Shown one piece after another: positions 3,457 through 62,912 of a DNA stretch of 64,000 bases. Under the pieces are notes generated by a model, which was not told the DNA's origin, did no database searches, and saw only the letters and a list, made by a program, of their open reading frames with translations. Position numbers and translations under genes: made by a program. Position 1 is the stretch's first letter. Each line of letters opens with the position of its first letter. Source of the stretch: a candidate division WOR-3 bacterium (GTDB taxonomy: Bacteria; Hydrothermota; Tepidihabitantia; Tepidihabitantales; Tepidihabitantaceae); contig CBFGKH010000009.1 in assembly GCA_965649295.1 (NCBI GenBank), positions 32,001-96,000 of the forward strand. Reading direction: 5' to 3'.

Positions 3457-3465
3457 GGTCAGCTT

Positions 3466-45400: not shown

Positions 45401-46199
45401 GTTAGCCCTTGCCTGGCGGTTTCTGCTGGGCGGGCTGGCAGCCATTGCTGGTTGCAGTGTTCCGGTCCTGCAGCCATCCCAGCCAGTCTCGGTACTGGCC
45501 GAAACCTACTTGTCTTCGCCGGTAGTTGACATCTGCGTTGATGGCAAGTCAGTGTTGGCACTTGATGTCGGCGGCGGCAGGTTGCTGCGCTTTACTCCTG
45601 AACTACTGCCGGTTGATACGGTTGTTCTGCCCCAACGGGTTGTGAACGCACGCGGGTGTGCTAGCGACCGGGCTTACTTCTATCTCTGGAACGACCACAA
45701 CCTCTACCGGCTGCAGCGAGCAGCCGACAGCCTTGCCCTCTGGCTGGGGAATGTTCGGCTGGCCGGAATCGCTTCCTATGGGGTCGGCGAAGCCCTGGTT
45801 GCCGATGCCCAGCAGGGAGCAGTATTTCTCAAGACAGTTTTCGGAGCGAGCCGTCGCTTCCTCCCGGCCGCCGACCTGCCCCGGCCCGGTCCAATGGCGG
45901 CACTATCGTCCGATGAGTTCTGTGCCCTAAGCGGAACGACACGCCTAGTCTTTTTCAATCGAACCGGCGCTGTCCTGCGCGAAATGAAGCTGCCCACTAG
46001 CTGCAATCTGCTCGCAACCGCCAACGGCAACATCTATGTCGCAAGGAGCGGGGCTGGCGAAGTCTTCCGGCTGGCTGGGGGCAAGTTTCTGAGAATCCTC
46101 TTGCCCGAGGGTGTGAGACCGGAACGGATTGTTGCAATCGAGGATCGGCTCATCGTCCTGACTGCGGGCTGGCGACTGGTTGCGCTGTCGGCCCGCTAG
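45381..46199 (+). CDS. Putative lipoprotein, probable beta-propeller
   Basis: Arg-rich N-terminus, hydrophobic core, lipobox IAGC; repeated short beta-strand blades. Confidence 0.6.
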   Translation: MRVRRSRLALAWRFLLGGLAAIAGCSVPVLQPSQPVSVLAETYLSSPVVDICVDGKSVLALDVGGGRLLRFTPELLPVDTVVLPQRVVNARGCASDRAYFYLWNDHNLYRLQRAADSLALWLGNVRLAGIASYGVGEALVADAQQGAVFLKTVFGASRRFLPAADLPRPGPMAALSSDEFCALSGTTRLVFFNRTGAVLREMKLPTSCNLLATANGNIYVARSGAGEVFRLAGGKFLRILLPEGVRPERIVAIEDRLIVLTAGWRLVALSAR

Positions 46200-46210
46200 T
46201 TCGCGGCGCG

Positions 46211-49200: not shown

Positions 49201-49336
49201 GCTGCCCAGCGCCACGATTGAGGCTTCATACGCAATATCGAAGGTCCTATCGGCTTCGGCCCGTTACTCATATCGGAAGCGACCCGACCGGCCGTCTGAG
49301 CACGGATTGGGGGCCGAGCTGCGAGCCGATTTCTAG
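46211..49336 (+). CDS. Large putative outer-membrane beta-barrel protein with SprA-like GSE..DY.IDY..G repeats
   Basis: Signal peptide; two GSE.(I/V).L.G....Y.(V/I)DY..G segments; YVGxGxGxY repeats; long amphipathic strands; terminal Phe. Confidence 0.65.
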   Translation: MVNISVLLVLLATAARVQPGVLCSVVTLGDGVTRVFEFQHSLVVEGSESIYLGDRVLDSTEYLVDYHRGLVVLTSAPPLWSLLVLTYRSLQPLLGSSDRVYQSRPMVVGIAAATPESSVATGSEVTVVSEESAEPGLVVSGTKSLGVSLGSAGGIEQSTRLTVSGRVEGVDVAAELSDAAVGIPAEGMSQRVDEFDRLLLQLRGRHWRATMGDIDMMLPAGGFGSIRRRVVGARAGVDLLRTEMTAHYAMPKGRSGYLAISGEDGVQGPYVLAVEGREATIVAGSEQVWLDGEKLERGWDADYTIDYSTGEVFFTSRRQISRSSRIEISYQTATTDYVRSSVAGTATATSGPFRLGVLLFREEDDTRRPTFGELTESEKRRLASVTADSGFAWFDGGVYVGPGKGEYQRDSSSYRYVGAGAGEYRVTFTAVADSAGDYVYDDSLLAWRYVGAGQGNYVARKRVALPERRELGVATVALSQGLWSTAIDFGITGARHNLFSTTAAAVVAGALNVDVVWGDSTRSISYSRRMAGRGFRFPGETPEIDFPWRWGGIGASARQAGDEVKLFVRPAPGVRILAEAGRLQCSDASSVLRYSGNLELGVVRLSGTSVGATSRAEASIAPRLGSLLPSLGWRIVASDTGREDHLLTGIATRQAGFNTAFDIDYSFERFNADTSLRNAATLARGRVEWQPSDAYRTTLAATYNSRSAVTASSAEGNRVGISLSIFAAPRPGVRFTFDGEQAGRRVQLRDETFSYVGTGRGAYRRDSATGRFFPDSLGGYERVLVPSGRTTLARELTANGSIELSQVWPVTVQGSFSHLATVTDTGVLRRLLAIDLRMALADADWPLTPALGTAYDMTEDQLVAATGTCSRRARAWVEVYGEEFGPFSSRVRIEGAHERVGGTIAERNDDIGRVEISPVLRLLRLELPVGIEWRRVELPRRHPELGTFGVWAVRAGLARSLFIQERGRVRGSLELLRRLATIPVMPYEVAMSEPTGWLPSATIEASYAISKVLSASARYSYRKRPDRPSEHGLGAELRADF

Positions 49337-49429
49337 GATCGCGATTCGGCTTGACAGTATCGGATGCGATTGGGTATCTTCTACTTGTGACAGGTAGTTC
49401 GTCGGTCCAGCCACAGCCAAGAGGAGACG

Positions 49430-50011
49430 GTGATGATGGCAACAAGACATGACTCGGGGCCGCGACCGCTGCGGCGCGGCAAAAAGACTAACCCCATGCA
49501 GCAGTACCTCTTGATCGCCGGAATCTTCGTGGCGCTAATTGTGGTTATGGTGTTGCTGATGACGAGTCGAAAGCCGGCGGCTGCGCCGAGGGTGGCGACG
49601 CGGGTGAAGAGCGAAGAGGGAACAGAGGAGAGCCGCTCGTCGCGGCGTAAGGAAGCGTCTCCCCGCGCTAGTCGAGCACTTCGACGTGAGCGCAAGGATA
49701 AGGAAGAAGTGCGCGAGCAGCGACGTCGTGAGCGCGAGGAGCGGACAATGGTGCGTCGCAACGAGGAACGGTCGAGCAGACGAACCGGTTCCGCTGACTT
49801 GAACTCGCGGGTCCGGACGAGCAGTCCGTATCAGTTGCGGGCGATAATGACCGACGAGAGTGGAGTCCGTTATGCGCTGGTTGGTGACCGTCGATTTCGA
49901 GCTGGCGACGATATCGGTGGGCGCAAGCTCGTTGAGATTGGTGTTGACGAGGTGAAGGTAGATAACGGCATCAGCACATACCCGGTAAAAGTCGGTCAGA
50001 CAATCTACTAG
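49430..50011 (+). CDS. Single-pass membrane protein with Arg/Glu-rich linker and GspB/MshK-like C-terminal domain
   Basis: SD GAGGAG; TM YLLIAGIFVALIVVMVLLM; C-terminal LRAIM......YALVGDRRFRAGDDIGGRKLVEI. Confidence 0.6.
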   Translation: MMMATRHDSGPRPLRRGKKTNPMQQYLLIAGIFVALIVVMVLLMTSRKPAAAPRVATRVKSEEGTEESRSSRRKEASPRASRALRRERKDKEEVREQRRREREERTMVRRNEERSSRRTGSADLNSRVRTSSPYQLRAIMTDESGVRYALVGDRRFRAGDDIGGRKLVEIGVDEVKVDNGISTYPVKVGQTIY

Positions 50012-50029
50012 CGCAGCGGGTCAGACGCG

Positions 50030-51958
50030 GTGAATCGATTAGCCCTGTTGCTGCTGTCATATTCTCTGCTCCTAGGCAACAATCTAGTAATCAATGGTGA
50101 CTTCGAGCTAGACCCAATCGCCAATGGCTGGGTCTTTGAGCGCTGGGGCAATTACCCGGACACTGGCAACTGTCGGTTGCGCTGGCTTCATAGTCTGAAT
50201 CCGGACCGCGACTTTGAGGTGATGGTTCAGAAGACGCTCCACCGTGAGGCGCGACTCTCCCAAGTCGTACGGGTGCCAAGCCTAGAACTCGAGTTCGCTG
50301 TCTCCTGTCAGATGTACTGCTCGACACGCAGCGAATCAACATGGACTGCGGCCTGCGTCAATCTTGACTACCTTGACGTTCAGGATTCAGTCCTTGGTAC
50401 CACCAGAATCTACAAACCTACCTCTGGCTGTACCTGGGTTAGCGATACGAAGCTTTACTTGATTCGGGTGAATGATACGCTATGGCATGACTATCGGATT
50501 GATGTCGCTGTCGAGCTGGCGCAACATCTGCTCGGTGTCAATGTTGCTGACATCCGCTCGATCCGAGTAGGGATTGTCGGCTATGTTGTAGACGACTGCT
50601 GAATGGGGCGACCAGAGGCGAAGGTCTTCGCCGACAATATTTCGCTCCATACCCGCACCACTCCAAGTTTGGAGTATCGAACGTTCGAGATTGACGATGC
50701 TGGTGGAATAGTCAATGGTAAGCTTGACCCGGGAGAGGAGGCGATACTGCGGTTGGTACTGCAGGCAGGTGGTGGCAGCGTTCCGGCGACTACTGGCCGA
50801 CTTTCGAGCCGGTCGAGTTCGCTTGCTGTATTGGATGCGGACGCCGAATTTGGGCCGGTCCTAGCCGGTGAGACGACGGCTTGTGTGGTCAATCCCTTCC
50901 GGGTTAGAGCTTCTCCTACTGCTCCGGTTGAAGAGGCAGCCTGGTGCGACCTAATACTTGCCGGAGATCACTACGATGACACTGTCTCGGTGCCCGTCAT
51001 AATTGGCGACTCAATGAATCTGCCGCTTGGGCCAGATAGGTATGGCCATCGTATGTTTGACTACAGCGACTCGGCATACGAGCAATGTCCTGACTATGAC
51101 TGGATAGAACTACGGGGAATCGGAACCCGTCTGCCCCTAGGCAACGACGAGACGAGGACGGTGCCGTTACCAGTGCAGTTTGGCCGATGGTGCTGGTATG
51201 GTGTGGCGTACGATTCGATCTCAATTTGCTCTAACGGTTGGATAGCAGCGGGAGTAACGGAACGCCCAGATTTTGTCAATATCATTCTGCCCTACAGCGG
51301 TTCACCGGCCAACATCCTCGCTTTCCTCTGGTGTGACCTTGACCCGAGTCGCTATGGTGCCATCTGGTATTGGTACGACACAGCAGGTCATCGGTTCATT
51401 GTCGAGTTTGACTCAGTTCCTTACTTTGCTTTGCCGAACAATTGGGAGAAGGTCCAAGTACACATTTACGATGAACATGTTTTAAGCTCAGGCTGCGACA
51501 ACCTTGTAACTATTCACTACCAAACCGCAAATGCCTGCAGTCTGATCACAGTTGCTTTTCAGAACAGTGACGGAACCGATGGTTTGACTCATGTCTGGAA
51601 TAGCTGGCATCCGCGGGTCAGTGCGCCAATCAGAGCAGGCAGTGCGTTCGGCATTGTAGCAGGGCCATCGGTTGGTGTTGGCAAACGTCAATCGGCTGAG
51701 CCAGCCAGCGGGGGACGGGTGGTTGTTTCTCCAAGCCCGTGTCGGCGCGGCCGACCGGTGTTGTTTAGTCTCTCCGGAGGTAATGTACAGACCTTGGAGA
51801 TTACCGATGGATTGGGGCATCGTGTTGCCCAGCTTCTTTTGAACAAGGGACAGACGACGGTCAGGTGGTGGCCGGTGTCGCTACCCAATGGTGTTTATTT
51901 TGTTATGTCCAGGACGCCGGGCGCCGTGGAGTGTGAGAAGCTTGTCCTGCTTGAGTGA
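50030..51958 (+). CDS. Candidate secreted selenoprotein (642 aa, Cys-Sec at TGA 50600-50602) with T9SS-type C-terminal domain; otherwise two abutting ORFs
   Basis: ORFs 50030-50602 and 50603-51958 are in frame, separated by one TGA; signal peptide only in the first, CTD only in the second; SECIS-like hairpin follows the TGA. Confidence 0.72.
50603..50650 (+). promoter_or_regulatory. Putative bacterial SECIS element
   Basis: Lower stem ATGGGGCGA (50603-11) / TCGCTCCAT (50642-50); upper stem GGCGA (50617-21) / TCGCC (50628-32); apical loop AGGTCT starts 19 nt after the TGA. Confidence 0.7.
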
Positions 51959-52031: not shown

Positions 52032-53675
52032 TCACTTCAGTTTGACGACGCGGGCAGTCGTTAGGGGGATGGTTCGGTCGTGCGTTTCAAGCATACAGAC
52101 ATAGGCTCCTGCCGGTGCTTGATTGCCGGATTCGGTCCGGCCATCCCAGATTACCTCGTTCGGTCGGGTAGGCAAGAGCGTACGCACGACATTGCCCGTA
52201 GCGTCGCAGACTCTAACAGTCGGGCCAGGTTCGAGGACCGAGTTCCAGCGTAGTGTTACAGTTTGCCCGAATATCGTCGGATTAGCCATCAAACAGCCGA
52301 GCTTGATCGCTAGCGGTTGGGCCGGTGTGTTTACGGCGGTAGCAGTTATCGGTAGTGTGGTATCGTACGGACAGAGATTGGGGCCGGTAACGACCAACCG
52401 AACCCGACCCGTATCCGGTAGTGTAACTTGGAGCTTGATTACACCCAGCGAGTCAGTGTAGCCGTAGCTATAGACGGTTGTATCGCTGGCCATTGAGAGA
52501 CAAGCAAGTGCGCTCTCTCTTGCGACACCGGCAGCGATGACTACGATATCGACACGCTGCAAGCCAGGGAGCAGTGTTGGCGGATGGCTTACACTCGGAC
52601 GCTCCGGTGTCTTCGTCCAGACGCGCAGGGACGGATCGCCGAGCAGATTGAAACCACGGTAGTCGTTAGTGCGTGAGGGGAACTCAGTGTATAGCTGCTG
52701 CTTGGCTCGCAAGAGCAACTTGCCTAGTGGCAGAATTCCTTCGCTGAAGAGTCCGGTAAAGAAGCCACGAGCTATGGCGCCTCGAACGCGGGCAACGTTA
52801 TTGTCACTATGGGTGTTACCGATGAAGGCAACTGCGCCTTTGAGCGCTGAGACCGTCCCGGTCTTTAGCCAAGCCTCGCCAACCATTGATTCATTCGGTG
52901 TCAAGGTCATCGTGGCACAGGTAGCGGAGAGAATCACAGGCAGTTTGGTGCCGTTGCTAGTCGCGGCGGGATTGACAGCAAATGGGTCATACCAGTTGCC
53001 GACTGCGCTGCCGCGATAGAGCACAATGCCTCGGCCAGCGTTAATCGCTGACACGACATGGCTAGCTGAATGGCCACGGTAGTTTGAAAAAGAATCACAG
53101 CTTACCCAGCCAGCGGTACGAGCAAGGCTGGCCGCATAGCGGGCGTCATTCCAATAGACTGTGTCGTCGCTATCACCGCCTTCTCGAACAATCGTCACAA
53201 GGCGACGCATCCAGAGCGTGTCAGTCAGGTCCGGATAGCGTTCGTAGGCCAACGTCTTGGCGACCATAACGTCAAGCTGAGCTGCTGTGCGGGCGGGAAA
53301 ACGACCAACCGGTAGCTCGGCTCGGAAATCGCCAGTGACATCACCGTAGTTGTTATCGGTAGCGTAGTCGTAGGGCATTGTCCGATAGTAGACTGCCGGC
53401 AGCGAGCTTTGTGAACCGACTAGCAAAACGTACTCGGGCCGCACCGGCCAGTTGTTGTAGGCGTTGCGAATGTAGCTGTGAATCGACCCTGTGTCGCTAC
53501 CAATCGTCGAGAGTTTGACAACCCGCGTCGAGAGCCCAGTAGCATGTTTCCACTGGGCAAGCGGCAGAATTGAGTTGTACAGTGCGTCAGTGGTTATTAT
53601 CAGCAGCCGTGCGCCGTCATCGGCAAGAACGGTCGTTGTCAAAATAGCCACCAGGAGAAATGCCAGTCGTTTCAC
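52032..53675 (-). CDS. C25 (gingipain) family protein with FlgD/T9SS C-terminal domain
   Basis: Signal peptide; LAQWK, PEYVLLVG, PVGRFP, SATC, FNLLGDPSL; ANP..F...DATGNVVRTL...WDGR...G...PAGAY. Confidence 0.85.
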   Translation of the reverse strand: MKRLAFLLVAILTTTVLADDGARLLIITTDALYNSILPLAQWKHATGLSTRVVKLSTIGSDTGSIHSYIRNAYNNWPVRPEYVLLVGSQSSLPAVYYRTMPYDYATDNNYGDVTGDFRAELPVGRFPARTAAQLDVMVAKTLAYERYPDLTDTLWMRRLVTIVREGGDSDDTVYWNDARYAASLARTAGWVSCDSFSNYRGHSASHVVSAINAGRGIVLYRGSAVGNWYDPFAVNPAATSNGTKLPVILSATCATMTLTPNESMVGEAWLKTGTVSALKGAVAFIGNTHSDNNVARVRGAIARGFFTGLFSEGILPLGKLLLRAKQQLYTEFPSRTNDYRGFNLLGDPSLRVWTKTPERPSVSHPPTLLPGLQRVDIVVIAAGVARESALACLSMASDTTVYSYGYTDSLGVIKLQVTLPDTGRVRLVVTGPNLCPYDTTLPITATAVNTPAQPLAIKLGCLMANPTIFGQTVTLRWNSVLEPGPTVRVCDATGNVVRTLLPTRPNEVIWDGRTESGNQAPAGAYVCMLETHDRTIPLTTARVVKLK

Positions 53676-54620: not shown

Positions 54621-56168
54621 TCAGGCTATTTGGTAGACGCTGTCGAGAACTGTGCCGTCAATCCATTTCACTACGGCCACAACTTTGTCGGTGAGTTTCG
54701 GTCGGCTCGGTTTGCCGCAGATTCGTTCAACTTCTGCCTTGATGTCTTCGATTGGCCGAATCGGCAGGCCCTTGCCCTTGGTTGATTCGATGAGATCGGG
54801 GCGAAGGGGGTTGATGGCAATGCCTAGTTCAGTGACAACAACGTCAACGAGCTCGCCTGGTGAACACAGGGTTGTGACTTCGTCAACAATGATTGGCATA
54901 CGGTCGCGCATCGCCGGTACGGATAGTATTGTGCAGCGGGCGTTCATGCAGTTTTGCCAGCCGCCAATACCGTGACGCAATCGACCATCAGAGTGCGTTA
55001 CGACGTTCGCATTGAAGCTGGTATCAACCTCGGTAGCGCCGAGAACGGCCACATCAAGTAGGTTGATGTAGTTGCCCTTGGCGTGATAGTTGTAGCTGAT
55101 GAGTGGTGTCGTTGAGACATGGCCACGGTTGACGGCGATCGAGTGAACCGCGTCGAGATCAAAAGCCTGACCGTCAATCAACGCAGAGGTCAGGCCCTGT
55201 TCGAGCATCTCAACAAGATAGCGAGTTGTGCCGCCGTGAATCCAGCTTGCCTTGACGCCGGCATCGCGCATCATTTCAGCGAGGAAGATTGCGAAAGCAA
55301 GGGAGACGCCGCCGGCTCCGCCCTGGAAACTAAATCCGTCACGCATGATTCCGGCATCGCGGATAAACCTTGCTGTTAGCTCGGCAATATAGAGCCGATC
55401 CGGGCTGCGAGTGATCTGGGTCGTGCCGGAAACAATTCTTTTGGGGTCACCGATTGAATCGGTCTGGACAACATAGTCGATGTATGAACCATGGAGTTGT
55501 ATCGGTATGCAGGGGAAAGGTACAAGATTGTTGGTGACGATGATACTGCGATCGGCGTACATCGTGTCCGGAACGGCGTAGCCAAGAACGCCACAAGCAG
55601 CCTCGCCCTGAATCCCATTTGCGTTGCCAAAACAGTCGGCTGCCGGCGCCGCAAGCACAGCGATATCGATGTGGACTTCGCCATCCTGAATCGCTTGTGC
55701 CCGGCCGCCGTGGGAGCGAAGTACACCAAGGCCGCGCATCCTGCCTTGTGTGCAGTAGTCACCGAGCGGGCCGTTGAGACTGCCTTCAACGTGATGTATG
55801 ACACCGGAATCAAGGTGTTTCGTGATCGGTGCGTGGCACGGGAACGCGGCCGACGGGTACCAGACGAGGTCTCTTAGGCCCATCTCAGCGCAGATGTCGA
55901 AAAGCTGCAACGCGAGAGTGTCGCCGTCTCGAAAGTGATGATGGGTCGAAATGGTCATTCCGTCCCGAATTCCACACTTCTCCAACGCCGTGCGCAGGTC
56001 AGGTAGGACTTTGTTGCCGTCTTCTGGATAGTCAATGCAGGTCGGAATTGGTGGGCAGGCCTTGCGACCGGCTGGGCGGTACTTGCCTACTCCGGCGAAG
56101 GGAACTGCCGGCTTACCATTGACTTCAGTGGGTACAGGCCGCCCCAAAGCGTTCCTGACGATAGTCAT
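54621..56168 (-). CDS. citF: Citrate lyase alpha subunit-like CoA/ACP transferase
   Basis: GIRDGMTISTHHHFRDGD, RSHGGR, FSFQGGAGG, LGATEVD..FNANVVT, DGTVLD; start 56168 overlaps the upstream stop. Confidence 0.88.
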   Translation of the reverse strand: MTIVRNALGRPVPTEVNGKPAVPFAGVGKYRPAGRKACPPIPTCIDYPEDGNKVLPDLRTALEKCGIRDGMTISTHHHFRDGDTLALQLFDICAEMGLRDLVWYPSAAFPCHAPITKHLDSGVIHHVEGSLNGPLGDYCTQGRMRGLGVLRSHGGRAQAIQDGEVHIDIAVLAAPAADCFGNANGIQGEAACGVLGYAVPDTMYADRSIIVTNNLVPFPCIPIQLHGSYIDYVVQTDSIGDPKRIVSGTTQITRSPDRLYIAELTARFIRDAGIMRDGFSFQGGAGGVSLAFAIFLAEMMRDAGVKASWIHGGTTRYLVEMLEQGLTSALIDGQAFDLDAVHSIAVNRGHVSTTPLISYNYHAKGNYINLLDVAVLGATEVDTSFNANVVTHSDGRLRHGIGGWQNCMNARCTILSVPAMRDRMPIIVDEVTTLCSPGELVDVVVTELGIAINPLRPDLIESTKGKGLPIRPIEDIKAEVERICGKPSRPKLTDKVVAVVKWIDGTVLDSVYQIA

Positions 56169-57385
56169 TGCGTCTCCTTGAGCCAGTCTGCGTCCAGGCA
56201 ACCGCAGCTGATTGCTAGTTCGATTGTGCGTATCGCCCGTCTGACTACCGGTGTATCGATCATTTTCGAACCGACACTTACAGCCCCGAGGCCGCGCGTT
56301 TGAGCTTTGTTGTAGGCGCGTACAATTTCCTGGGCCTTTTCGATCTCGAATCGAGTAGGGGTGAACGCTCTGTGGACCACGGCAATCTGACGCGGGTGTA
56401 TGCAACCTTTGCCTTCAAAACCCATCTCTTTGGCAGTGATACAGCTGAGTTCAAGCGTCTTCATGTCATCAACGTCGGCAAAGACAGTGTCAATAGCCTG
56501 AACTCCCGCGGCTCTGGCAGCATTGACAATTTGTGATCTGGCCCAGAGGCTTTCCAGCCCGGCTGCAGTTTTTGTTCCTCCGAGATCAGCAATGTAGTCC
56601 TCGAGTCCGTAAGTCAATGCGCAGATGCGCTTGGAAGCGCTGGCTATTTCACGGGCACGAAACATTCCCTCGCAACTCTCGATAATCGGCATTAAGAAGA
56701 CATCTGAGTGTGACCGGCGTGCTACCGTTTGAGCGGTTGCGACGTGTTCATCGACAGCGATAACCTGTTCCGGGGTCTCGCACTTAGGAATGAGGATGAC
56801 ATTGGCACCAGCCTGGACAATCGTGTCGATTTCATCGAGTCCGCGCGGCAGCTGATTGATTCTCACCATCCGTTCGCATGAACCGAAATCAACTGCCCGC
56901 AGTGCGTTACGGACAAGAACCAGGGCTGCGTCTTTCTCAGCTGGCGGTACCGAGTCCTCGAGGTCGAGAATAATAGCGTCAGGCTGGTGGATGCGGGCAT
57001 TGAGCATGAATTTGGGCTCATTGCCCGGCAGATACAGTCTTGTGCGGCGCCAGCGCTCCTTGTTTGTCGGCCTGCCCATTGTCGGCCCGGGCTCAGGTAG
57101 GTACTCGGGAACCTTACACCCAGGAAATGCTCGCCGGACGGCCGTTTCAAGTCGAGCCATAATGACAAATGGCAAAGCACCGGTGTCCTCAGCCGCAACA
57201 CGACAGTGGTTGACACCTAGCGCGCTCAGTTCGGTCATGATAAGCTCGCGATTGGGCTGGCCGTACATGAAGTCAACTTTGCTCTTCAGTTCCAGTTCGA
57301 TGCCGCCGCTGTCACGGGGTTCGACCTCGATCCAGATATCGCTGCGTACGTCCGGTCCGCGTCGGCCCGCCGATGCTATAGCCAT
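56165..57385 (-). CDS. Fused citrate lyase acyl-carrier (CitD-like) and beta (CitE-like) subunit
   Basis: N-terminal AG.....RSD...IELELKSKV...YG...EDTGA......ARLETAV.RA; then RTRLYLPGN, DLEDSV, VRIN, GFEGKGCIHPRQ, MID.P. Confidence 0.85.
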   Translation of the reverse strand: MAIASAGRRGPDVRSDIWIEVEPRDSGGIELELKSKVDFMYGQPNRELIMTELSALGVNHCRVAAEDTGALPFVIMARLETAVRRAFPGCKVPEYLPEPGPTMGRPTNKERWRRTRLYLPGNEPKFMLNARIHQPDAIILDLEDSVPPAEKDAALVLVRNALRAVDFGSCERMVRINQLPRGLDEIDTIVQAGANVILIPKCETPEQVIAVDEHVATAQTVARRSHSDVFLMPIIESCEGMFRAREIASASKRICALTYGLEDYIADLGGTKTAAGLESLWARSQIVNAARAAGVQAIDTVFADVDDMKTLELSCITAKEMGFEGKGCIHPRQIAVVHRAFTPTRFEIEKAQEIVRAYNKAQTRGLGAVSVGSKMIDTPVVRRAIRTIELAISCGCLDADWLKETQ

Positions 57386-57877
57386 CTATGCGCCCTTCCG
57401 CGTCCTGAGTTTGGCGCGAGTGAATTCGAGCAGGCCGCCTGCACGAGTGATTGCCAATATCTCTTCGGGTAGCCTGGGAAAAGAGTAGATGTCATTGCCG
57501 ATCTTGATGGTGCCAGCGGCGGCATCAAGCTGAACAGGCAGGCCTGGATGATAAGCCTCGACTGCTGCCGGGGCTTCGACCAGCAGCAAGCCTTGATTAA
57601 TGGCAGCCCGGTAAAAGATGCGGGCGAAACTCTTCGCAACAATCGCTTGGATGCCCACTGCCTTCAGCCCAACAACCGGTTGTTCGCGTGAGGAACCACA
57701 ACCGAAGTTTCTGCCGGCGATGATGATATCACCAGCCTGAACTTCTTTAGCAAATGTCGGATCAAGGTCTTCGAGAAGGCGCGGCTTGATTTCCTCGGGC
57801 TTGGCACAGGTGTAGGTGTATTTGCCCGGAAACAGCATGTCGGTGTTGATATCGTCACCGTAATGCCAGACTTTCAT
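57386..57877 (-). CDS. Homoaconitase/3-isopropylmalate dehydratase small subunit
   Basis: GDDINTD..FPGKYTY, NFGCGSSREQ, SFARIFYR, AGGLL. Confidence 0.9.
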   Translation of the reverse strand: MKVWHYGDDINTDMLFPGKYTYTCAKPEEIKPRLLEDLDPTFAKEVQAGDIIIAGRNFGCGSSREQPVVGLKAVGIQAIVAKSFARIFYRAAINQGLLLVEAPAAVEAYHPGLPVQLDAAAGTIKIGNDIYSFPRLPEEILAITRAGGLLEFTRAKLRTRKGA

Positions 57878-57878
57878 C

Positions 57879-59141
57879 TTAGGCCACCTTTCGCGGGTCA
57901 GTCAGTTTACCGGTGATGGCAGTCGCCGCGACCGTGGCTGGGCTTGCAAGGTAAACCTCCGCGTCCTTGCAACCCATGCGGCCCTTGAAGTTGCGGTTCG
58001 ACGTCGAAAGGCAACGCTCGCCAGGCGCGAGGACACCTTGGTGGGCCCCCAGACAAGGACCGCAGCCCGGCGGCAGCAGGACTGCACCGGCAGCAACCAG
58101 CGTCTGTATGTCACCAGCGTCGAGAGCTTTGTTTAGTTCGCTACGTGAGGCCGGCAGAATTAACAGACGAGTATTGGGAGAAACTTGTTTGCCTTGGAGA
58201 ATGCGAGCAGCAACCGCGATGTCACTCGCGCGGCCATTGGTACACGTACCAATGAGGCACTGGTGAATCTCAAGACCTTCAAGGTCGGTAACCGGTCGGT
58301 AGTTGTCAACCTTATGAGGCGCTGCTACCGCTGGAACAATTCTGTTCAGTTCGAATTCGAGCTCCTGGCGGTAGCTCGCTCCCGGATCGGCCCATTCTGC
58401 GTTCCAGGAGATCCGGGTGATGCCGCTTCCGGCGAGATAGCCCTTAGTGACTTCGTCAACAGGAAAGACCGCATTCTTCGCGCCCATCTCCACGCCCATG
58501 TTGGCAATTACGAACCGGTCGTCCATCGTCAAGTTTCCGATTTCGCCCCAGTACTCGACTGAACAATAATCAGCGCCGTCAGCGCCGAGTTGGCCGATGA
58601 TCGTCAAAACAAGGTCCTTGGCCGAGACCATTTCTGGTAGTCGGCCCCTAAGCGTTATGCGAATTGTCTCGGGTACCTTGAACCATGTCTCGCCAGTCAA
58701 CAGTAGAGCCGCAGCTTCGGTTCGGTCAATCCCCGTCGCAAAGGCATTCACCGCACCGTATGAGCAGGTGTGTGAATCAGAACCAACCGCAAGCATACCG
58801 GGTAAAACCAGACCTTTTTCGACCATAACCTGGTGACAGACACCGGTACCGATATCGAAGAAGTTCTTGATTCCGTATTGCTTGACGAATTCACGAATTC
58901 GCTGATGACTCATAGCTGTCTTTTCGTCGGACGCAGGAACGACGTGATCGAGGACGATGACCGGCTGATTAGGATCAGCGACTCCAAACTCAGTGAGGTC
59001 ATTAGCAATCTTGCCAACGATAGCGGCAGCATTGTCATGCATCAGCAACCGATCCGGCTTACATGTTACAAGCTCACCGGCGTGTGTTTCCTTTCTGCCG
59101 GCCTTACGCGCCAGCACCTTTTCGGCAAATGTCATTGGCAT
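57879..59141 (-). CDS. Homoaconitase/3-isopropylmalate dehydratase large subunit
   Basis: MHDN, LDH, GVCHQV, GSDSHTC, IGTCTNGR, PGCGPCLG, STSNRNFKGRMG, LASPA. Confidence 0.92.
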   Translation of the reverse strand: MPMTFAEKVLARKAGRKETHAGELVTCKPDRLLMHDNAAAIVGKIANDLTEFGVADPNQPVIVLDHVVPASDEKTAMSHQRIREFVKQYGIKNFFDIGTGVCHQVMVEKGLVLPGMLAVGSDSHTCSYGAVNAFATGIDRTEAAALLLTGETWFKVPETIRITLRGRLPEMVSAKDLVLTIIGQLGADGADYCSVEYWGEIGNLTMDDRFVIANMGVEMGAKNAVFPVDEVTKGYLAGSGITRISWNAEWADPGASYRQELEFELNRIVPAVAAPHKVDNYRPVTDLEGLEIHQCLIGTCTNGRASDIAVAARILQGKQVSPNTRLLILPASRSELNKALDAGDIQTLVAAGAVLLPPGCGPCLGAHQGVLAPGERCLSTSNRNFKGRMGCKDAEVYLASPATVAATAITGKLTDPRKVA

Positions 59142-59185
59142 CGGGTTCCTCTTTTCTTGAACTACTGGTCAGCCCGGATGAGCAG

Positions 59186-59213
59186 ATTATAGGGCCTAGC
59201 CAGCGACTGGCAA
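59186..59213 (-). promoter_or_regulatory. Internal sigma70 promoter upstream of the dehydratase/lyase genes
   Basis: TTGCCA-N16-TATAAT. Confidence 0.65.
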
Positions 59214-59249
59214 GGCCTGGAGGGTTGCCCCGGGGTTGTGTATTCTTGT

Positions 59250-61049
59250 TCAGCCGAGTAGGCCTCCACGCCGATAGATGTCAAGCTGAGCCTTAGCGAA
59301 CGGCCGTCCCTGAACTCGCTGCCCCGTACGTTTGATGACAATCTCACCGGTTTCAAGATTCGCACTGACCTCGTCGCCATTCCTTACGCCCGCATTCACC
59401 AGGTCAGCTATCATCACTGGCAGGGCGACATTGACCGCATTGCGAAAGTAGATGGCGCCGTACGACTTCGCGATAATTAAGCTGATACCGAGGCTGAGGA
59501 GGCAGTCCACTGCCTGCTGGCGCGATGACCCGGCACCGAAGTTTGCGCCAGTGACGATAATGTCGCCCGGCCTAGCCTTTTTGGCGAAGTCCTCCCAGCC
59601 CGGCAGGTTGTCGAATGTGTACTTACCCATTTCTCTGCGGTCAGTGATGGCTAAATAGCGGTTGTGAAATATCATATCGGTGTCGATATTGTCACGATCG
59701 ATTACCCAGACCCGGCCAGTGATAACGGTTGGGCGAGGACCGGACGCCGGTCGGCCTGATTCTGATGCCCTGGTTGAGCCGGCGTCAACAGTGAAAACCG
59801 CTGGTGTGGCCGGTATGGTATCGGCAGTCGTGATGATGCCGGCAACAGCCGACGCGGCCGCGGTAGCGGGTGAACAAAGCCAGACTTCGCCCTTGCCCTG
59901 CTTGCCAGTGAAATTGCGATTGCCAGTTGAGACAGTAATTTCCCCAGGCCCGTTCTGGCCAATTTGACCGGCAGCGCATCCAGCGCAGCCGGCGTTGCCG
60001 ATGAGTGCACCGGCCTTCTTGAATACTTCGAGTAGGCCGTTATGCATGCACCTCTGCCAAATAGCATCAGTCGCAGGTACGACTTTTAGGACGACACCGG
60101 GCGCGACCTGGCGTCCGGTGAGAATCTGGGCGGCGGCCATGAGGTCAGAGAGACGTCCATTAGTACATGAGCCGATGAAGGCTGAGTCAATCTTGCGGCC
60201 GGCGACAGTGCCGACCTCGACCACATCTTCAGGATGACCTGGACGAGAAATGAGTGGCTTGAGACCGGCTAGGTCAAGCCGTTCGACCCGGGCATACTTT
60301 GCATCACCATCAGCATTGACAGGCATTGCCTTGCGGCCGGTTCGTTCCGTGCAGTAGTCAATGATTTCATCGTTGGGAGGAAAGAGAATGATTATCGCTC
60401 CCATTTCGGTGCCGAGCGAGGAGATTGTTATGCGGCCGTCAAGGTTGAGACGGTCAGCATAGTTGCCGTAGACCTCAGCAGCATAGCCGAGCAGACCGTC
60501 GGCGCCGAAGTGCCGGAGCAAAGCAAGTCCGACATCCTTCGGGGTGATTGCGGGGTTGGGCTCACCGATAAGTTCGATTCGGATCGTCGGTGGAACCTCG
60601 AACCAGACTTTGCCGTAGGCCCAAGCGTGAGCAATATCCTGATCGCCCATGCCTTGACCAAAGGCGCCAATGGCGCCGAGGATGTTAGCGTGTGAGTCGG
60701 TTGAGACCAGTGTTTCGCCTGGACCAACTAGGCCTTCATCAATTGCTAAGTGCGTGCCAATGCCGGCGTTAATATCATAAATGCGGATTCCATGCCTGCG
60801 GGCGAATAGGCGACAGAGTTGCTGATTAGCCGCATACTTCTGGTCTGATCCGGTAGGATTGCAATCAAAGGTGAAGAATGTCCTTTTCGGGTCAGCAATG
60901 CCCAGATTGTGTTCTTCAAGCGCCTGGACGACATTGGCACCCCCAAAATCGCGTGCCACGCGTGCATCAATTTCCAGCTCGACGATGTCACCGGGCGCAA
61001 CCGACTTACCACAATGGGCGGCGATAATCTTTTCGACAATCGTGGCCAT
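59250..61049 (-). CDS. Fused LeuC-LeuD aconitase-family protein, divergent
   Basis: TIVEKI, TDSH, IGSCTNGR, GCAGC, STGNRNF; linker; then DNIDTD, NFGAGSSRQ, GGLL. Confidence 0.88.
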   Translation of the reverse strand: MATIVEKIIAAHCGKSVAPGDIVELEIDARVARDFGGANVVQALEEHNLGIADPKRTFFTFDCNPTGSDQKYAANQQLCRLFARRHGIRIYDINAGIGTHLAIDEGLVGPGETLVSTDSHANILGAIGAFGQGMGDQDIAHAWAYGKVWFEVPPTIRIELIGEPNPAITPKDVGLALLRHFGADGLLGYAAEVYGNYADRLNLDGRITISSLGTEMGAIIILFPPNDEIIDYCTERTGRKAMPVNADGDAKYARVERLDLAGLKPLISRPGHPEDVVEVGTVAGRKIDSAFIGSCTNGRLSDLMAAAQILTGRQVAPGVVLKVVPATDAIWQRCMHNGLLEVFKKAGALIGNAGCAGCAAGQIGQNGPGEITVSTGNRNFTGKQGKGEVWLCSPATAAASAVAGIITTADTIPATPAVFTVDAGSTRASESGRPASGPRPTVITGRVWVIDRDNIDTDMIFHNRYLAITDRREMGKYTFDNLPGWEDFAKKARPGDIIVTGANFGAGSSRQQAVDCLLSLGISLIIAKSYGAIYFRNAVNVALPVMIADLVNAGVRNGDEVSANLETGEIVIKRTGQRVQGRPFAKAQLDIYRRGGLLG

Positions 61050-61051
61050 GG

Positions 61052-61627
61052 CTACTGTAGTAGTTGACCCTTGTCGAGCATGACTAACGGATCGAATGTT
61101 GCGAAGTCGGCCTGGTGAATAAGCACTGTTTCCACGACCTTGGGCGCGCCTTCACCCTCTTTAGCATGGCAGGCGATGGTGTTGACGATATCATCAGGCA
61201 GACCTACCTGAGCAGCCAGAATCGCTCCGGAAATGGGGTGTCGTGCATACATCCCGCGAGAGCTCTTGCGATAGCCGCCTTTACCGTCCTTTTCCGTTTC
61301 AATAAGTTTCCCCACGTCATGGAGCAGGCCGCCGGCAATGAGCCGGTCCATGTTGATCTTGTACGGCATTTGCCTGTAGGCATTCTCCTGCGCGTCAGCT
61401 AGAGCACAGGCTCCTTCGGTCACAGCAATGGTATGTTCTATCAGGCTGATGCCGTAGGTCTTGGTGAGCAAGGTGAAGGGAAGCTTGTGCAGTTCCTCAA
61501 TTGAAGTCCAGTTACCCTGTCGGCAGCCCTCAAGCCAGGTTTGAACCACCTTCTGGCGAATTTCCTTGTCCCCAATCTCGTTCAACTGATCCAGGAAGAC
61601 TTCCTCGATTTGACTAGCGGTGATCAT
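61052..61627 (-). CDS. HD-domain phosphohydrolase
   Basis: IEHT, LLHDVGK, RHP, ACH, HQAD. Confidence 0.88.
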   Translation of the reverse strand: MITASQIEEVFLDQLNEIGDKEIRQKVVQTWLEGCRQGNWTSIEELHKLPFTLLTKTYGISLIEHTIAVTEGACALADAQENAYRQMPYKINMDRLIAGGLLHDVGKLIETEKDGKGGYRKSSRGMYARHPISGAILAAQVGLPDDIVNTIACHAKEGEGAPKVVETVLIHQADFATFDPLVMLDKGQLLQ

Positions 61628-61636
61628 CTCTCTTCC

Positions 61637-62818
61637 TCAAAGTGCAGCAATTATAGCGTCTGTCATCTGTTGAGTCGTGGCCGCACCGCGAGCAGTTACA
61701 TCTGGGCCACCGGGCAGACGTAGCATATCGTAAGTACGCACTTTGCCTTCCTTGATGACGCGTGCAACTGCCCGTCGTATGCGTTGCGCTCTATCGGTCT
61801 CACCGATGTGGTCAAGCATCATGCAGGCAGCAAGAATCATGGCAATCGGATTGACAATTGATGGCGACAGCTTCTCATACTTCGGAGCTGAACCGTGAGT
61901 TGGTTCGAACACGGCGACATCGCGTCCGATATTGGCAGAGCAGGCAAAGCCGAGTCCCCCGACGAGACCGGCAAAGCCGTCAGATACTATGTCACCGAAC
62001 ATGTTGCCGGCGACGATAACACCGTAGCTCTCCGGATTCTTTGTCAACCACATCATCACCGCATCGATGTTATCAGAACGGAGAGCGATGCCGGGATAGT
62101 CCCTGGCGACTTTCTTGGCTTCAGCTTCCATCATTCCTGAAGTTTCGCGGATGACGTTGGGCTTTTCGCAGACGGTCACCGAACTGTAGCCGAACTGGCG
62201 AGCGTATTCGAACGCGGCCCGACAGATGCGTTCGCAGGCCTGCCGGGTGAAGATGCGCAGCGATATTGCCATGTCGGCCGATGGCACGTGCTTGAAGGCC
62301 TGCATCTTCTTGTGGGTTTCCAGTGCGCGTCTTACTTCATCGGGCGGATTGGTCCACTCGACACCGACGTATAGACACTCGGTGTTCTGGCGGAAGATTA
62401 CGGCGTCAACCTTAGGTTCCTCAAAGCCTCCGTCGTGGCGACGGATGAAGTTGAGGGGATTACCTTCGAATGAGCGGCAGGGGCGGATACAGATGTCGAG
62501 GTCGAAATGCTGGCGCATCGTGACGATGGGCGAGAAGTATTGCAATCCTTTGCCCTGGAGCGACGGATCGAGTTCGGCCTGAGCCTTGTCCTTGGGCTTT
62601 GACGTAATGGCGCCAAAGAGACCAAGTCGGTGGGTCTCGAGCAACTTGACAGTTCGTTCTGGAAAAGCGTTGCCCTCCTTGCACCAGAACTCCCAGCCGA
62701 TATCGCCGTGGACATAATCCGCCGCGAAACCAGCGGCCTCAAGCACGCGAATTGCCTCAGGGAGGACGATCTTGCCGATACCGTCACCAGGCATGGCTAC
62801 GATTGTTCGCTTGGCCAC
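61637..62818 (-). CDS. Isocitrate/isopropylmalate dehydrogenase family (homoisocitrate dehydrogenase-like)
   Basis: PGDGIG, SPIVTMRQ, RQNTECLY, KPNV, NMFGDIVSD, FEPTHGSAP, NP.A; SD GGAGG; promoter TTGACC-N16-TAGAAT at 62895-62868. Confidence 0.9.
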   Translation of the reverse strand: MAKRTIVAMPGDGIGKIVLPEAIRVLEAAGFAADYVHGDIGWEFWCKEGNAFPERTVKLLETHRLGLFGAITSKPKDKAQAELDPSLQGKGLQYFSPIVTMRQHFDLDICIRPCRSFEGNPLNFIRRHDGGFEEPKVDAVIFRQNTECLYVGVEWTNPPDEVRRALETHKKMQAFKHVPSADMAISLRIFTRQACERICRAAFEYARQFGYSSVTVCEKPNVIRETSGMMEAEAKKVARDYPGIALRSDNIDAVMMWLTKNPESYGVIVAGNMFGDIVSDGFAGLVGGLGFACSANIGRDVAVFEPTHGSAPKYEKLSPSIVNPIAMILAACMMLDHIGETDRAQRIRRAVARVIKEGKVRTYDMLRLPGGPDVTARGAATTQQMTDAIIAAL

Positions 62819-62912
62819 ATTACCTCCGAAGGTTGTAGTTTCTGTGTAGGCTGACTAACGGTGGGCTATTCTAGCCGAGACACTTGAGAGGTCAAGCCGG
62901 AGAGAACAGCGG

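Follow-up and report, generated by a model that had tools for sequence, protein, structure and literature searches.

The upper α-aminoadipate pathway of fungi and Thermus uses homocitrate synthase, an aconitase together with the Lys4/HacAB homoaconitase, and the homoisocitrate dehydrogenase Lys12/HICDH. According to the abstract of Fazius et al. 2012 (PMC3556520), isomerization of homocitrate is split over two dehydratases. A different enzyme, the CitDEF citrate lyase of Klebsiella and E. coli (EC 4.1.3.6), is built, like the ACP-dependent citramalate lyase, from the CitF, CitE, and CitD families. All known CitDEF-type lyases work in the cleavage direction. In Ignavibacterium album, a CitF and a CitE::CitD fusion (IALB_1146/IALB_1147) were called an ATP-independent citrate lyase, with fermentation of citrate or a reverse TCA cycle as its possible role (Liu et al. 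2012, PMC3362086); the passages of that paper that treat the pair mention no linked dehydrogenase, HD, PrpD, or homoaconitase-like genes. Finally, the methylcitrate cycle also has two distinct half-step dehydratases, PrpD and aconitase, followed by the PrpB lyase.

The window, by which we mean the whole stretch of 64,000 nucleotides analyzed here, from a candidate division WOR-3 bacterium, contains a predicted operon of seven genes (54621 to 62818, minus strand) with the same three enzyme families as the α-aminoadipate pathway past the C-C step, but with a CitDEF-type lyase where homocitrate synthase would be. It looks like an undescribed route in which homocitrate and homoisocitrate stand between 2-oxoadipate, at one end, and 2-oxoglutarate plus acetate, at the other; beyond the "citrate lyase" annotation in I. 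album, we found no published description of such a module. Our best reading, although roughly an even call, is that the seven genes would form one metabolic module without a synthase, acting on homocitrate-type (seven-carbon) tricarboxylates. The genes are as follows, in their order on the minus strand, with two promoter-like sites.

62868..62895, minus strand, promoter-like site upstream of the dehydrogenase gene (TTGACC-16-TAGAAT, 10/12 matches; weak evidence)
61637..62818, minus strand, β-decarboxylating dehydrogenase, homoisocitrate-dehydrogenase-like (IDHl, 393 aa; Pfam Iso_dh, 249 bits)
61052..61627, minus strand, HD-domain protein (191 aa; Pfam HD, 44.7 bits; HDIG)
59250..61049, minus strand, fused LeuC-LeuD-type Fe-S hydro-lyase (AcnF, 599 aa; Pfam Aconitase and Aconitase_C)
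59186..59213, minus strand, promoter-like site within the 108 bp between AcnF and LeuC (TTGCCA-16-TATAAT, 11/12; weak evidence)
57879..59141, minus strand, LeuC-type large subunit (420 aa; hacA_fam subfamily, 520 bits, above cutoff)
57386..57877, minus strand, LeuD-type small subunit (163 aa; Pfam Aconitase_C; LEUD_arch, 166 bits)
56165..57385, minus strand, CitD(ACP)-CitE fusion (406 aa; Pfam ACP, 58.9 bits, and HpcH_HpaI, 176 bits)
54621..56168, minus strand, CitF-type acyl-ACP:acid transferase (515 aa; Pfam CitF, 453 bits)

An earlier note on this DNA had described a same-strand run of abutting or overlapping genes, and this is what we find: the intergenic spacings, in gene order, are 9, 2, 108, 1, and 0 bp, followed by a 4-base overlap. 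The longest CitF frame opens at 56405; the likely start is the ATG at 56168, which shares an ATGA with the CitDE stop and follows an AAGGAG. The region upstream of the dehydrogenase gene has 8 promoter-like sites, compared to 4.7 ± 2.2 in shuffles, and the site before LeuC fits an operon composed of two sub-modules. None of IDHl, LeuC, LeuD, AcnF, CitE, CitD, and CitF reaches any NCBIfam equivalog cutoff, which sets them apart from the enzymes of the α-aminoadipate pathway and weighs against our reading. The earlier note had also seen no citrate, homocitrate, or isopropylmalate synthase, and this holds for the whole genome, which is complete (100% by marker genes). There are 0 Citrate_synt matches, no LeuA or homocitrate synthase was found, and the single HMGL-like match is an OadA/PycB-type protein with PYC_OADA and biotinyl domains. 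LysW and LysX were not found in the genome either, and it has no aconitase or Iso_dh gene outside the operon.

The dehydrogenase resembles enzymes acting on homoisocitrate. The best NCBIfam matches of IDHl are the homoisocitrate dehydrogenases AksF2 (275 bits) and AksF (257 bits), both below cutoff, and the four top PDB matches of its N-terminal 160 residues are all HICDHs. The substrate helix, S96-P97-I98-V99, is invariant in 20/20 orthologs, as are the catalytic residues R102, R112, R143, Y150, K219, D252, D276, and D280. This helix is part of the SPIVTMR that had been likened to the fungal enzyme; the motif is present in the translation, and solved Schizosaccharomyces pombe HICDH (3ty3) has SPIVaLR at the aligned place. 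E. coli isocitrate dehydrogenase (IDH) has S113-L-N115-V there, and Ile in IDHl takes the place of Asn115, the residue that binds the isocitrate γ-carboxylate. By its residues, then, the helix is that of fungal homoisocitrate dehydrogenase, unlike the S-x-N of isocitrate dehydrogenase.

The hydratases point to two dehydratases, one per half-step, as had been proposed from the fungal precedent. A PrpD-family protein stands in for AcnF in the clusters of Ignavibacteriota, Acidobacteriaceae, and Chloroflexota, and across clusters either AcnF or PrpD is present, in every case with the LeuCD type; it is this replacement that suggests separate enzymes for the half-steps. The set would parallel the way fungi and Thermus divide homocitrate isomerization, except that the role of first dehydratase would fall to PrpD or a dedicated fused enzyme of the LeuCD type and not to the housekeeping aconitase. 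AcnF forms a separate clade (support, 100), falls below every equivalog cutoff (295 versus 612 for the PRK07229 aconitase and 256 versus 530 for TIGR00139), and has the specificity loop HN[RQK][HY]L[AST][IV]T. The PrpD proteins of the variant clusters recall the methylcitrate cycle, but they score only 68 to 89 bits on PrpD equivalogs, and the 2-methylisocitrate of that cycle is a tertiary alcohol that is cleaved, not oxidized, whereas the module's dehydrogenase is obligatory.

For the split LeuC/LeuD enzyme, the relationship is with homoaconitases as defined by TIGR00139, the NCBI homoaconitase equivalog (cutoff, 529.9). The LeuC scores themselves are below cutoff (LEU2, 451 versus 611; HacA_Meth, 436 versus 550; TIGR00139, 298 versus 530). 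However, in a quick tree, the LeuC clade (13 rows) lies outside both leu-operon LeuC and true aconitases and is sister, with moderate support (SH-aLRT, 90), to a TIGR00139-positive clade (8 rows); the fused LeuCD enzymes of PrpD-type clusters score 748 to 881 bits on that model. The LeuD loop FPGKYTYT is identical in 12/12 split orthologs covering it. The PGKYTY within it, pointed out previously as homoaconitase-like, is indeed common to LeuD and the bacterial fused proteins that pass TIGR00139. The loop is unlike those of Methanocaldococcus jannaschii HACN (YLRTT) and IPMI (YL-VYT). Counting against a homoaconitase reading, LeuD lacks the Arg that the methanogen enzyme has in its loop.

The lyase genes are related to those for citrate lyase without matching them. 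The CitD-CitE fusion is below the citE (278 versus 443) and citD (50.9 versus 63.5) cutoffs, with the carrier Ser15 (R-S-D) kept in 69/71 orthologs, and CitF scores 496.4 on the citF equivalog TIGR01584, compared to a cutoff of 501.45. The closest solved structures are human CLYBL for the CitE domain (E, 2e-40) and 2hj0 for CitF (E, 4e-120). As for citrate lyase, one would expect an acyl exchange and then cleavage into acetate and a 2-oxoacid. Unlike citrate lyase, CitD and CitE are fused here, as they are in I. album, and surveyed Ignavibacteriota loci have the same CitF/CitE::CitD pair (60 to 67% CitF identity). The genes sit with hydratases and a dehydrogenase, not with a citrate carrier and oxaloacetate decarboxylase. 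Neither CitC, CitG, nor CitX was found in the genome of the window, and CitG and CitX are missing from 15/16 other carrier genomes searched for those two. Since CitC is absent, no energy input is encoded, and this, like the behavior of the known lyases, favors cleavage.

The synteny survey called for by the earlier note found the gene set to be co-conserved, in an arrangement that is more than chance. Among 41 relatives, which as kin genomes are not independent, 13 have both CitF and the dehydrogenase, 26 have neither, and 1 each has CitF alone or the dehydrogenase alone. LeuD-CitDE-CitF is contiguous in 9/9 same-family loci; in some relatives, the IDHl-HD-AcnF and LeuC-LeuD-CitDE-CitF halves are unlinked, and IDHl-HD-AcnF is then kept as a block. 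In other lineages we examined 79 CitF loci, and 27 contain at least one partner (dehydrogenase, HD, or aconitase family), with varying gene order; these 27 come from Gemmatimonadota, Acidobacteriota, Ignavibacteriota, Bacteroidota, Chloroflexota, and unclassified lineages (six or more phyla). A census of 89 loci gave no further recurrent partner gene.

We imagine that the module works in breakdown, the reverse of the α-aminoadipate pathway. The dehydrogenase would reductively carboxylate 2-oxoadipate to homoisocitrate, the homoaconitase-like LeuC/LeuD enzyme would dehydrate this to cis-homoaconitate, and AcnF (PrpD in other lineages) would rehydrate it to homocitrate. The complex of CitF and CitD-CitE could then replace acetate by homocitrate on the carrier thiol, and the carrier-bound homocitrate would be cleaved to 2-oxoglutarate and an acetyl thioester. 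The net reaction would be 2-oxoadipate + CO2 + NAD(P)H to 2-oxoglutarate + acetate, and we give this route, in this direction, about an even chance of being right. The 2-oxoadipate would likely come from 2-aminoadipate or lysine breakdown. In a Draconibacterium metagenome-assembled genome, genes for a P6C/aminoadipate-semialdehyde dehydrogenase (P6CDH; 798 bits, cutoff 730) and saccharopine dehydrogenase directly follow the cluster. Within the order of Draconibacterium (Bacteroidales), 65 of 151 genomes have IDHl and 38 have P6CDH (both, 26; IDHl alone, 39; P6CDH alone, 12; neither, 74; odds ratio, 4.1), but a single one of the 88 further loci has P6CDH next to the cluster. The full-length LKR and SDH homologs of the window genome, detailed below, would also fit lysine breakdown, but LKR occurs in 23/24 family genomes with or without the cluster. 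The best P6CDH-model match in the window genome reaches 385 bits, compared to the cutoff of 730, and is more like ketoglutarate-semialdehyde dehydrogenase. The link of the module to lysine breakdown is only moderate, and in the window genome it is weak.

The same enzymes might instead interconvert 2-oxoglutarate, isocitrate, and citrate and cleave citrate to oxaloacetate and acetate. Such a module could support the reductive fermentation of glutamate, the use of citrate, or an unconventional branch of a reverse TCA cycle. The near-cutoff CitF score and the naming of the I. album pair fit this, as does the fact that in the window genome and in three other carriers (G047, G048, and G054) the cluster supplies the only aconitase- and IDH-like genes, with no citrate synthase in the window genome; in another (G056), IDHl is the sole Iso_dh gene and there is no monomeric IDH, despite the presence of citrate synthase and aconitase. 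Nevertheless, we consider it unlikely. The position of IDH Asn115 is an invariant Ile in a helix shared with fungal HICDH, the LeuCD partner is homoaconitase-like, and CitC, CitG, and CitX, which true citrate lyases have, are absent. Two dehydratases are retained where elsewhere one aconitase is enough for citrate, and 13/16 carrier genomes from other phyla already have citrate synthase, most of them with a long canonical aconitase and another Iso_dh or monomeric IDH. Together, these features favor homocitrate-type acids rather than citrate as the substrate. It seems quite improbable that the module acts in a different 2-alkylmalate series (that of citramalate, that of isopropylmalate, or one of longer homologs like (homo)2-citrate) and shortens, for instance, 2-oxobutyrate, 2-oxoisocaproate, or 2-oxopimelate by one carbon: the known isopropylmalate and citramalate pathways need a single LeuCD, and the SPIV helix, the TIGR00139 relatives, and the P6CDH association all point to C7 homo-acids. 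Such a series would agree with the Ile and Val that IDHl has where IDH has Asn115 and Thermus HICDH has Arg85, with the chain-length tolerance of the methanogen AksF enzymes that IDHl matches best, with the likeness of the CitE domain to the citramalyl-CoA lyase CLYBL, and with LeuD, which among solved proteins best matches the small subunit of the M. jannaschii isopropylmalate/citramalate isomerase (129 bits, versus 110 for HACN).

Every step is reversible in principle, and a homocitrate module could also run from acetate (as acetyl-carrier) and 2-oxoglutarate through homocitrate to 2-oxoadipate, feeding 2-aminoadipate or lysine without homocitrate synthase. The window genome encodes full-length Lys1-like (LKR) and Lys9-like (SDH) homologs (E against human AASS, 3e-83; against yeast Lys9, 1e-102) and has no DapF, no DapL above cutoff, and no decarboxylase above the lysA cutoff, as might be expected if lysine were made this way. 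But LKR is present in 23/24 family genomes irrespective of the cluster, which only 13 of those 24 have, and LysW and LysX are missing. Condensation of acetate with a 2-oxoacid is unfavorable at millimolar levels without thioester hydrolysis or ATP, and a CitC-type ligase is absent. The P6C dehydrogenase neighboring the Draconibacterium cluster, moreover, works catabolically. We find this direction very doubtful and prefer breakdown of 2-oxoadipate.

The earlier note had seen an M42 aminopeptidase upstream of the operon as fitting the catabolic reading. The gene is present in the window, but no M42 peptidase lies beside the module in any of the 88 other loci examined, and a promoter-like site separates it from the operon. 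The overall proposal of a lyase-based (homo)citrate pathway is supported in its gene content, absent synthase, and co-conservation; a place for the M42 peptidase in the system is not supported.

The HD protein, which the α-aminoadipate pathway does not include, adjoins IDHl in 18/89 loci and remains with it where the module splits. H65, D104, H130, H154, H171, and D174 are invariant, and one subgroup has A, I, or C in place of the HD-dyad His. Its AF2 model (pLDDT, 94.8) has YhaM as the top PDB fold match (E, 7.5e-5; TM, 0.66) and otherwise matches generic HD hydrolases.

Seven genes on the minus strand of the window, spanning 54621 to 62818, make up the cluster considered here.

Genes of the cluster at 54621-62818
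minus strand; Iso_dh-family dehydrogenase, called IDHl; 393 aa
minus strand; HD-domain protein; 191 aa
minus strand; AcnF, a fused Aconitase/Aconitase_C protein; 599 aa
minus strand; LeuC-type large subunit; 420 aa
minus strand; LeuD-type small subunit; 163 aa
minus strand; CitD(ACP)-CitE fusion, called CitDE; 406 aa
minus strand; CitF; start most likely the ATG at 56168

The intergenic gaps are 9, 2, 108, 1 and 0 bp, and the start of CitF was chosen because that ATG overlaps the CitDE stop codon and is preceded by AAGGAG. On weak evidence, promoter-like sites lie ahead of IDHl and within the 108-bp gap before LeuC; 8 such sites were counted, against 4.7 +/- 2.2 expected from shuffles. At Rfam gathering thresholds, no riboswitch or other known RNA was detected in the window or in L105, a locus elsewhere in the same genome.

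That no synthase is encoded with these enzymes, as the earlier note had pointed out, holds for the whole genome. The assembly comprises 19 contigs totaling 2.28 Mb, with a marker-gene completeness of 100%. It gave no match to citrate synthase, and its single match to the HMGL-like family, that of LeuA and homocitrate synthase, is of the OadA/PycB type, carries PYC_OADA and biotinyl domains and adjoins acetyl-CoA synthetase. LysW, which the note had listed together with the synthases, had no match in the genome, and LysX had none above its cut-off. The cluster genes are the only members of the Iso_dh and aconitase families in this genome.

Homologs of CitF and of IDHl each occur in 14 of 41 related genomes, which are kin rather than independent samples; both are found in 13, CitF alone in one (G013), IDHl alone in one (G004), and neither in 26. 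Within the family, LeuD, CitDE and CitF are contiguous in all nine loci, joined by LeuC in eight (the contig ends in the ninth), and IDHl, the HD gene and AcnF are adjacent in five of the nine. In three of the remaining cases (G018, G009 and G011), the IDHl-HD-AcnF block is elsewhere in the genome, and thus the cluster consists of two sub-modules that are inherited together. A scan for CitF with one genome per species returned 79 loci, and in most of them a CitD-CitE fusion lies ahead of CitF. At least one of IDHl, the HD gene and an aconitase-family gene was within the locus in 27 of the 79, in varying order, with many of these loci being short contig pieces in which the absence of a gene says little. 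The lineages with such partners are Gemmatimonadota, Holophagae, Acidobacteriaceae, Ignavibacteriota, Bacteroidota, Chloroflexota and unclassified ones. The synteny survey suggested in the earlier note has come out in favor of an association of these genes.

In a census of all ORFs at 89 loci, one of them the window, CitF was seen at 84 loci, and the CitDE fusion at 74 besides the window. The sole recurrent partners were the aconitase family (30 loci), IDHl (21), HD (18), split LeuD (14) and PrpD/MmgE (8); all other neighbors were lineage specific, and no transporter, regulator or CitC, CitG or CitX was seen across the 89 loci. The upstream M42 aminopeptidase, once taken to fit a catabolic role, drops out as part of the module, since none of the 88 other loci has a homolog beside it; one M42 homolog in the relative G009 is 7 kb from the module and on the opposite strand. 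Genes for a sodium pump of the methylmalonyl-CoA/glutaconyl-CoA-decarboxylase type and for methylmalonyl-CoA epimerase adjoin CitDE-CitF or the cluster at L032:4087-8541 and L016:4115-7838. The epimerase is found at 7 loci and the carboxyltransferase at 6; the subunits gamma, biotin and beta are each found at 4. These loci include Labilibaculum filiforme and one same-family genome.

The presence of two kinds of hydratase had been explained by one enzyme for each half-step of an isomerization, as in fungi. Variant clusters in Melioribacteraceae, Ignavibacteriales, Acidobacteriaceae and one Chloroflexota MAG are informative here, combining IDHl, HD, CitDE and CitF with one fused or split LeuCD-type enzyme and a PrpD-family protein. 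In two quick trees with SH-aLRT support (43 rows, and 42 rows with outgroups), AcnF forms a single clade with support of 100 and the remaining cluster hydratases form a second group; the PrpD-bearing clusters keep this second type and lack AcnF. This pattern suggests that PrpD and AcnF may be interchangeable for one step, with the LeuCD type presumably taking the other. The same two-dehydratase logic is seen in the methylcitrate cycle, with PrpD and aconitase, and in the aminoadipate pathway of fungi and Thermus, with aconitase and homoaconitase. Fazius et al. 2012 (PMC3556520) describe homoaconitase as interconverting only homoaconitate and homoisocitrate, and this, together with the replacement of AcnF by PrpD, supports the assignment of two enzymes to two half-steps.

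Three lines point to seven-carbon "homo" acids, rather than citrate, as the substrates: the module is an extra one, IDHl resembles homoisocitrate dehydrogenase (HICDH), and the LeuCD-type enzyme is related to homoaconitase. In carrier genomes from other phyla, the module comes in addition to the citric acid cycle set: citrate synthase is present in 13 of the 16, and most also encode a canonical aconitase of the long type along with a monomeric IDH or a further Iso_dh. A Draconibacterium MAG, for instance, contains a leu operon and a gene group of aconitase, IDH and citrate synthase besides the module. AcnF is below the aconitase equivalogs (PRK07229, 295 bits against a cut-off of 612; acon_putative, 257 against 719), and the true PRK07229 aconitases that other carrier genomes encode fall in a clade apart from the cluster hydratases.

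The kinship with Lys4 that the earlier note had raised is a tentative one. In the 42-row quick tree, the window LeuC clade is sister (SH-aLRT 90) to a clade of proteins positive for TIGR00139, the model for fungal Lys4-type homoaconitase, and both lie outside leu-operon LeuC, bacterial LeuC and true aconitases; however, the window proteins themselves remain under the TIGR00139 cut-off of 529.9 (LeuC 298, LeuD 88, AcnF 256). The fused LeuCD enzymes of PrpD-type clusters exceed it, with 748, 881 and 875 bits. The LeuD loop PGKYTY, likened before to that of homoaconitase, is indeed common to TIGR00139-positive proteins, and all 12 of 12 split LeuD have it unchanged.

IDHl has the Iso_dh fold (Pfam, 249 bits), and its catalytic set R102, R112, R143, Y150, K219, D252, D276 and D280 is invariant in 20 of 20 orthologs, as is S-P-I-V. 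When aligned with E. coli IDH, which reads S-L-N-V at this helix, Ser113 is kept and Asn115 is replaced by Ile. The motif SPIVtMR falls on the same helix as SPIVaLR of the solved S. pombe HICDH 3ty3 (SPIV-x-L-R), so that the resemblance noticed in the sequence has a structural counterpart; the Thermus HICDH reads G-A-I-R at this position. Arg85 of the Thermus enzyme was studied by Miyazaki et al. in 2003; R85V reportedly loses activity on isocitrate and keeps that on homoisocitrate, to which we give no weight here. The N-terminal 160 residues of IDHl have only HICDHs among their four best PDB matches. Over its full length, IDHl matches the NAD-IDH 6lky best (193 bits), with Thermus HICDH close behind (185 bits). 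Equivalog cut-offs, in an NCBIfam set that has no fungal Lys12 model, were not reached (AksF2, 275 against 540; AksF, 257 against 500; iso_homocit_dh, 125 against 680).

Some observations run contrary to the homo-acid series. None of the cluster proteins in the window reaches an equivalog cut-off, and LeuD has as its best solved match the M. jannaschii isopropylmalate/citramalate isomerase subunit and is missing the Arg of the methanogen homoaconitase loop. Another alkylmalate series is nevertheless a quite improbable substrate in our estimate. The leucine-synthesis equivalogs are not reached (LEU2, 451 against 611; leud, 143 against 246; leuB, 155 against 353). That the module works on citrate and isocitrate would fit those genomes whose only aconitase- and IDH-like genes are in the cluster, and it is the role given to the Ignavibacterium album CitF/CitDE pair in the published annotation (PMC3362086). 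We consider it unlikely, given the genomes in which the module is extra.

For the homo-acid series, we favor the breakdown direction, from 2-oxoadipate toward acetate and 2-oxoglutarate, because the cluster has no synthase, ligase or other energy input and the known lyases of the CitDEF type act in cleavage. IDHl would carboxylate 2-oxoadipate with CO2 and NAD(P)H to homoisocitrate, the two dedicated dehydratases would convert this through cis-homoaconitate to homocitrate, and the lyase would split homocitrate into acetate and 2-oxoglutarate. The same chemistry run for biosynthesis seems quite improbable. One can envision, as a tentative proposal that we put forward with some doubt, a widespread oxygen-independent reversal of the aminoadipate route, from lysine through saccharopine, 2-aminoadipate and 2-oxoadipate to 2-oxoglutarate and acetate, which would be redox neutral when the saccharopine steps are included and would have an unassigned HD component.

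Lysine as the source of 2-oxoadipate has moderate support. In the Draconibacterium MAG, the genes directly after the cluster are those of a P6C/aminoadipate-semialdehyde dehydrogenase (P6CDH; 798 bits against a cut-off of 730) and of a saccharopine dehydrogenase, and a second saccharopine dehydrogenase is upstream; G052 has the same dehydrogenase pair 21 kb from its cluster. Of 17 carrier genomes, 9 encode a P6CDH that exceeds the cut-off. Among 151 genomes of Draconibacterium's order, IDHl and P6CDH occur together in 26, IDHl without P6CDH in 39 and P6CDH without IDHl in 12, and 74 lack both (odds ratio 4.1, Fisher p 3e-4, uncorrected for kinship or genome size). Against a lysine origin, lysine-ketoglutarate reductase (LKR) is found in 23 of 24 family genomes irrespective of the cluster, and LKR and saccharopine dehydrogenase (SDH) were therefore set aside as pathway markers in the family. 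Nor are saccharopine and P6C dehydrogenases regular neighbors, being found at one of 88 other loci (L037) besides the more distant pair in G052.

The genome itself has full-length LKR and SDH homologs and no convincing P6CDH. Its aldehyde dehydrogenase was rejected for that role (385 bits against 730), with a ketoglutarate-semialdehyde dehydrogenase model scoring best and uninformative neighbors. The two homologs are in L105 (contig C5, L105:5829-10183), where dapA, dapB, the LKR homolog (454 aa, matching the LKR domain of human AASS at E 3e-83) and the SDH homolog (440 aa, matching yeast Lys9 at E 1e-102) are arranged head to tail; LKR is also present in both genomes of a second family. No DapF, no LysW and no DapL above its cut-off were found in this genome, and two decarboxylases are below the lysA cut-off (222 and 272 against 298). 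DapAB and the saccharopine enzymes may together form an unusual lysine route.

That leaves the lyase and its carrier. CitF is well matched by Pfam (453 bits) and is just below the TIGR01584 cut-off (496.4 against 501.45). The CitE and CitD domains are present in CitDE, although they score below the NCBI citrate-lyase cut-offs (citE, 278 against 443; citD, 50.9 against 63.5; PRK13253, 60.3 against 65), and no CitD structure matched CitDE in the comparison with solved structures. A carrier serine, Ser15 in R-S-D, is kept in 69 of 71 CitDE fusions; we take it, from the Pfam ACP register, to correspond to Ser14 of E. coli CitD. CitG, CitX and the CitC ligase domain each gave 0 matches in our 100%-complete genome, and CitG and CitX are absent from 15 of the 16 other carrier genomes. 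With the serine kept and these enzymes missing, it is conceivable, within the same tentative proposal, that the carrier domain is primed without CitG and CitX. The exception is Labilibaculum filiforme (G042), with a fused CitX-CitG in one 476-aa frame (G042:C19:23941-25296) on a different contig from its CitDE-CitF pair; this frame may therefore serve a second, canonical lyase or a malonate decarboxylase.

The HD protein is the most faithful neighbor of IDHl. Six putative metal ligands are invariant, and the dyad His is replaced in one subgroup, made up of Bacteroidota, Ignavibacteriota, Acidobacteriota and Chloroflexota. A structure model (pLDDT 94.8) retrieved only generic HD hydrolases by fold, with YhaM the best. 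It might be a new component of the route, a suggestion as provisional as the lysine scheme to which it belongs.

We found no description of the module in the literature, including under "homocitrate lyase" and combined enzyme names, and that phrase was not found in any paper searched. Among the 151 species sampled from one Bacteroidota order, 65 have IDHl, and at least six phyla contain carriers of the set. If the proposal is right, homocitrate lyase would be a new lyase activity, with a citrate-lyase-type carrier protein working without the known prosthetic-group enzymes. Many anaerobic or facultative bacteria would then hold an undescribed means of disposing of 2-oxoadipate from lysine or 2-aminoadipate, one that needs neither 2-oxoadipate dehydrogenase nor glutaryl-CoA chemistry, fixes one CO2 and returns 2-oxoglutarate. 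Annotations as "citrate lyase," "isocitrate dehydrogenase" and "LeuCD" in metagenome-based metabolic models would need rereading, for example in the proposed reverse TCA cycle of Ignavibacterium.

The rest of the window shows a peptide-degrading anaerobe: its peptidases belong to families C25, M14, S41 and M42, and it also encodes a NiFe hydrogenase and several 2-oxoacid:ferredoxin oxidoreductases. Two tandem oxidoreductase gene pairs (fused gamma-alpha plus beta subunit) are at 1726-6906 on the plus strand. Gingipain-like C25 peptidases, an M14 carboxypeptidase and two PorV-like genes are found at 37699-41553, 52032-53675, 24302-25192 and 42191-43366 and, outside the window, at L107:5425-8499. 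FlgD-Ig-like ends are present on the M14 enzyme and on the C25 peptidase of 547 aa, and the peptidases and the PorV-like genes suggest a type-IX-like secretion of proteases. At an E-value threshold of 1e-5, Pfam matched none of five consecutive plus-strand ORFs at 45381-51958 (272, 1041, 193, 190 and 451 aa). At 9864-11447 (plus strand), a 527-aa ThyX-type thymidylate synthase contains two Thy1 stretches, a duplicated or fused form.
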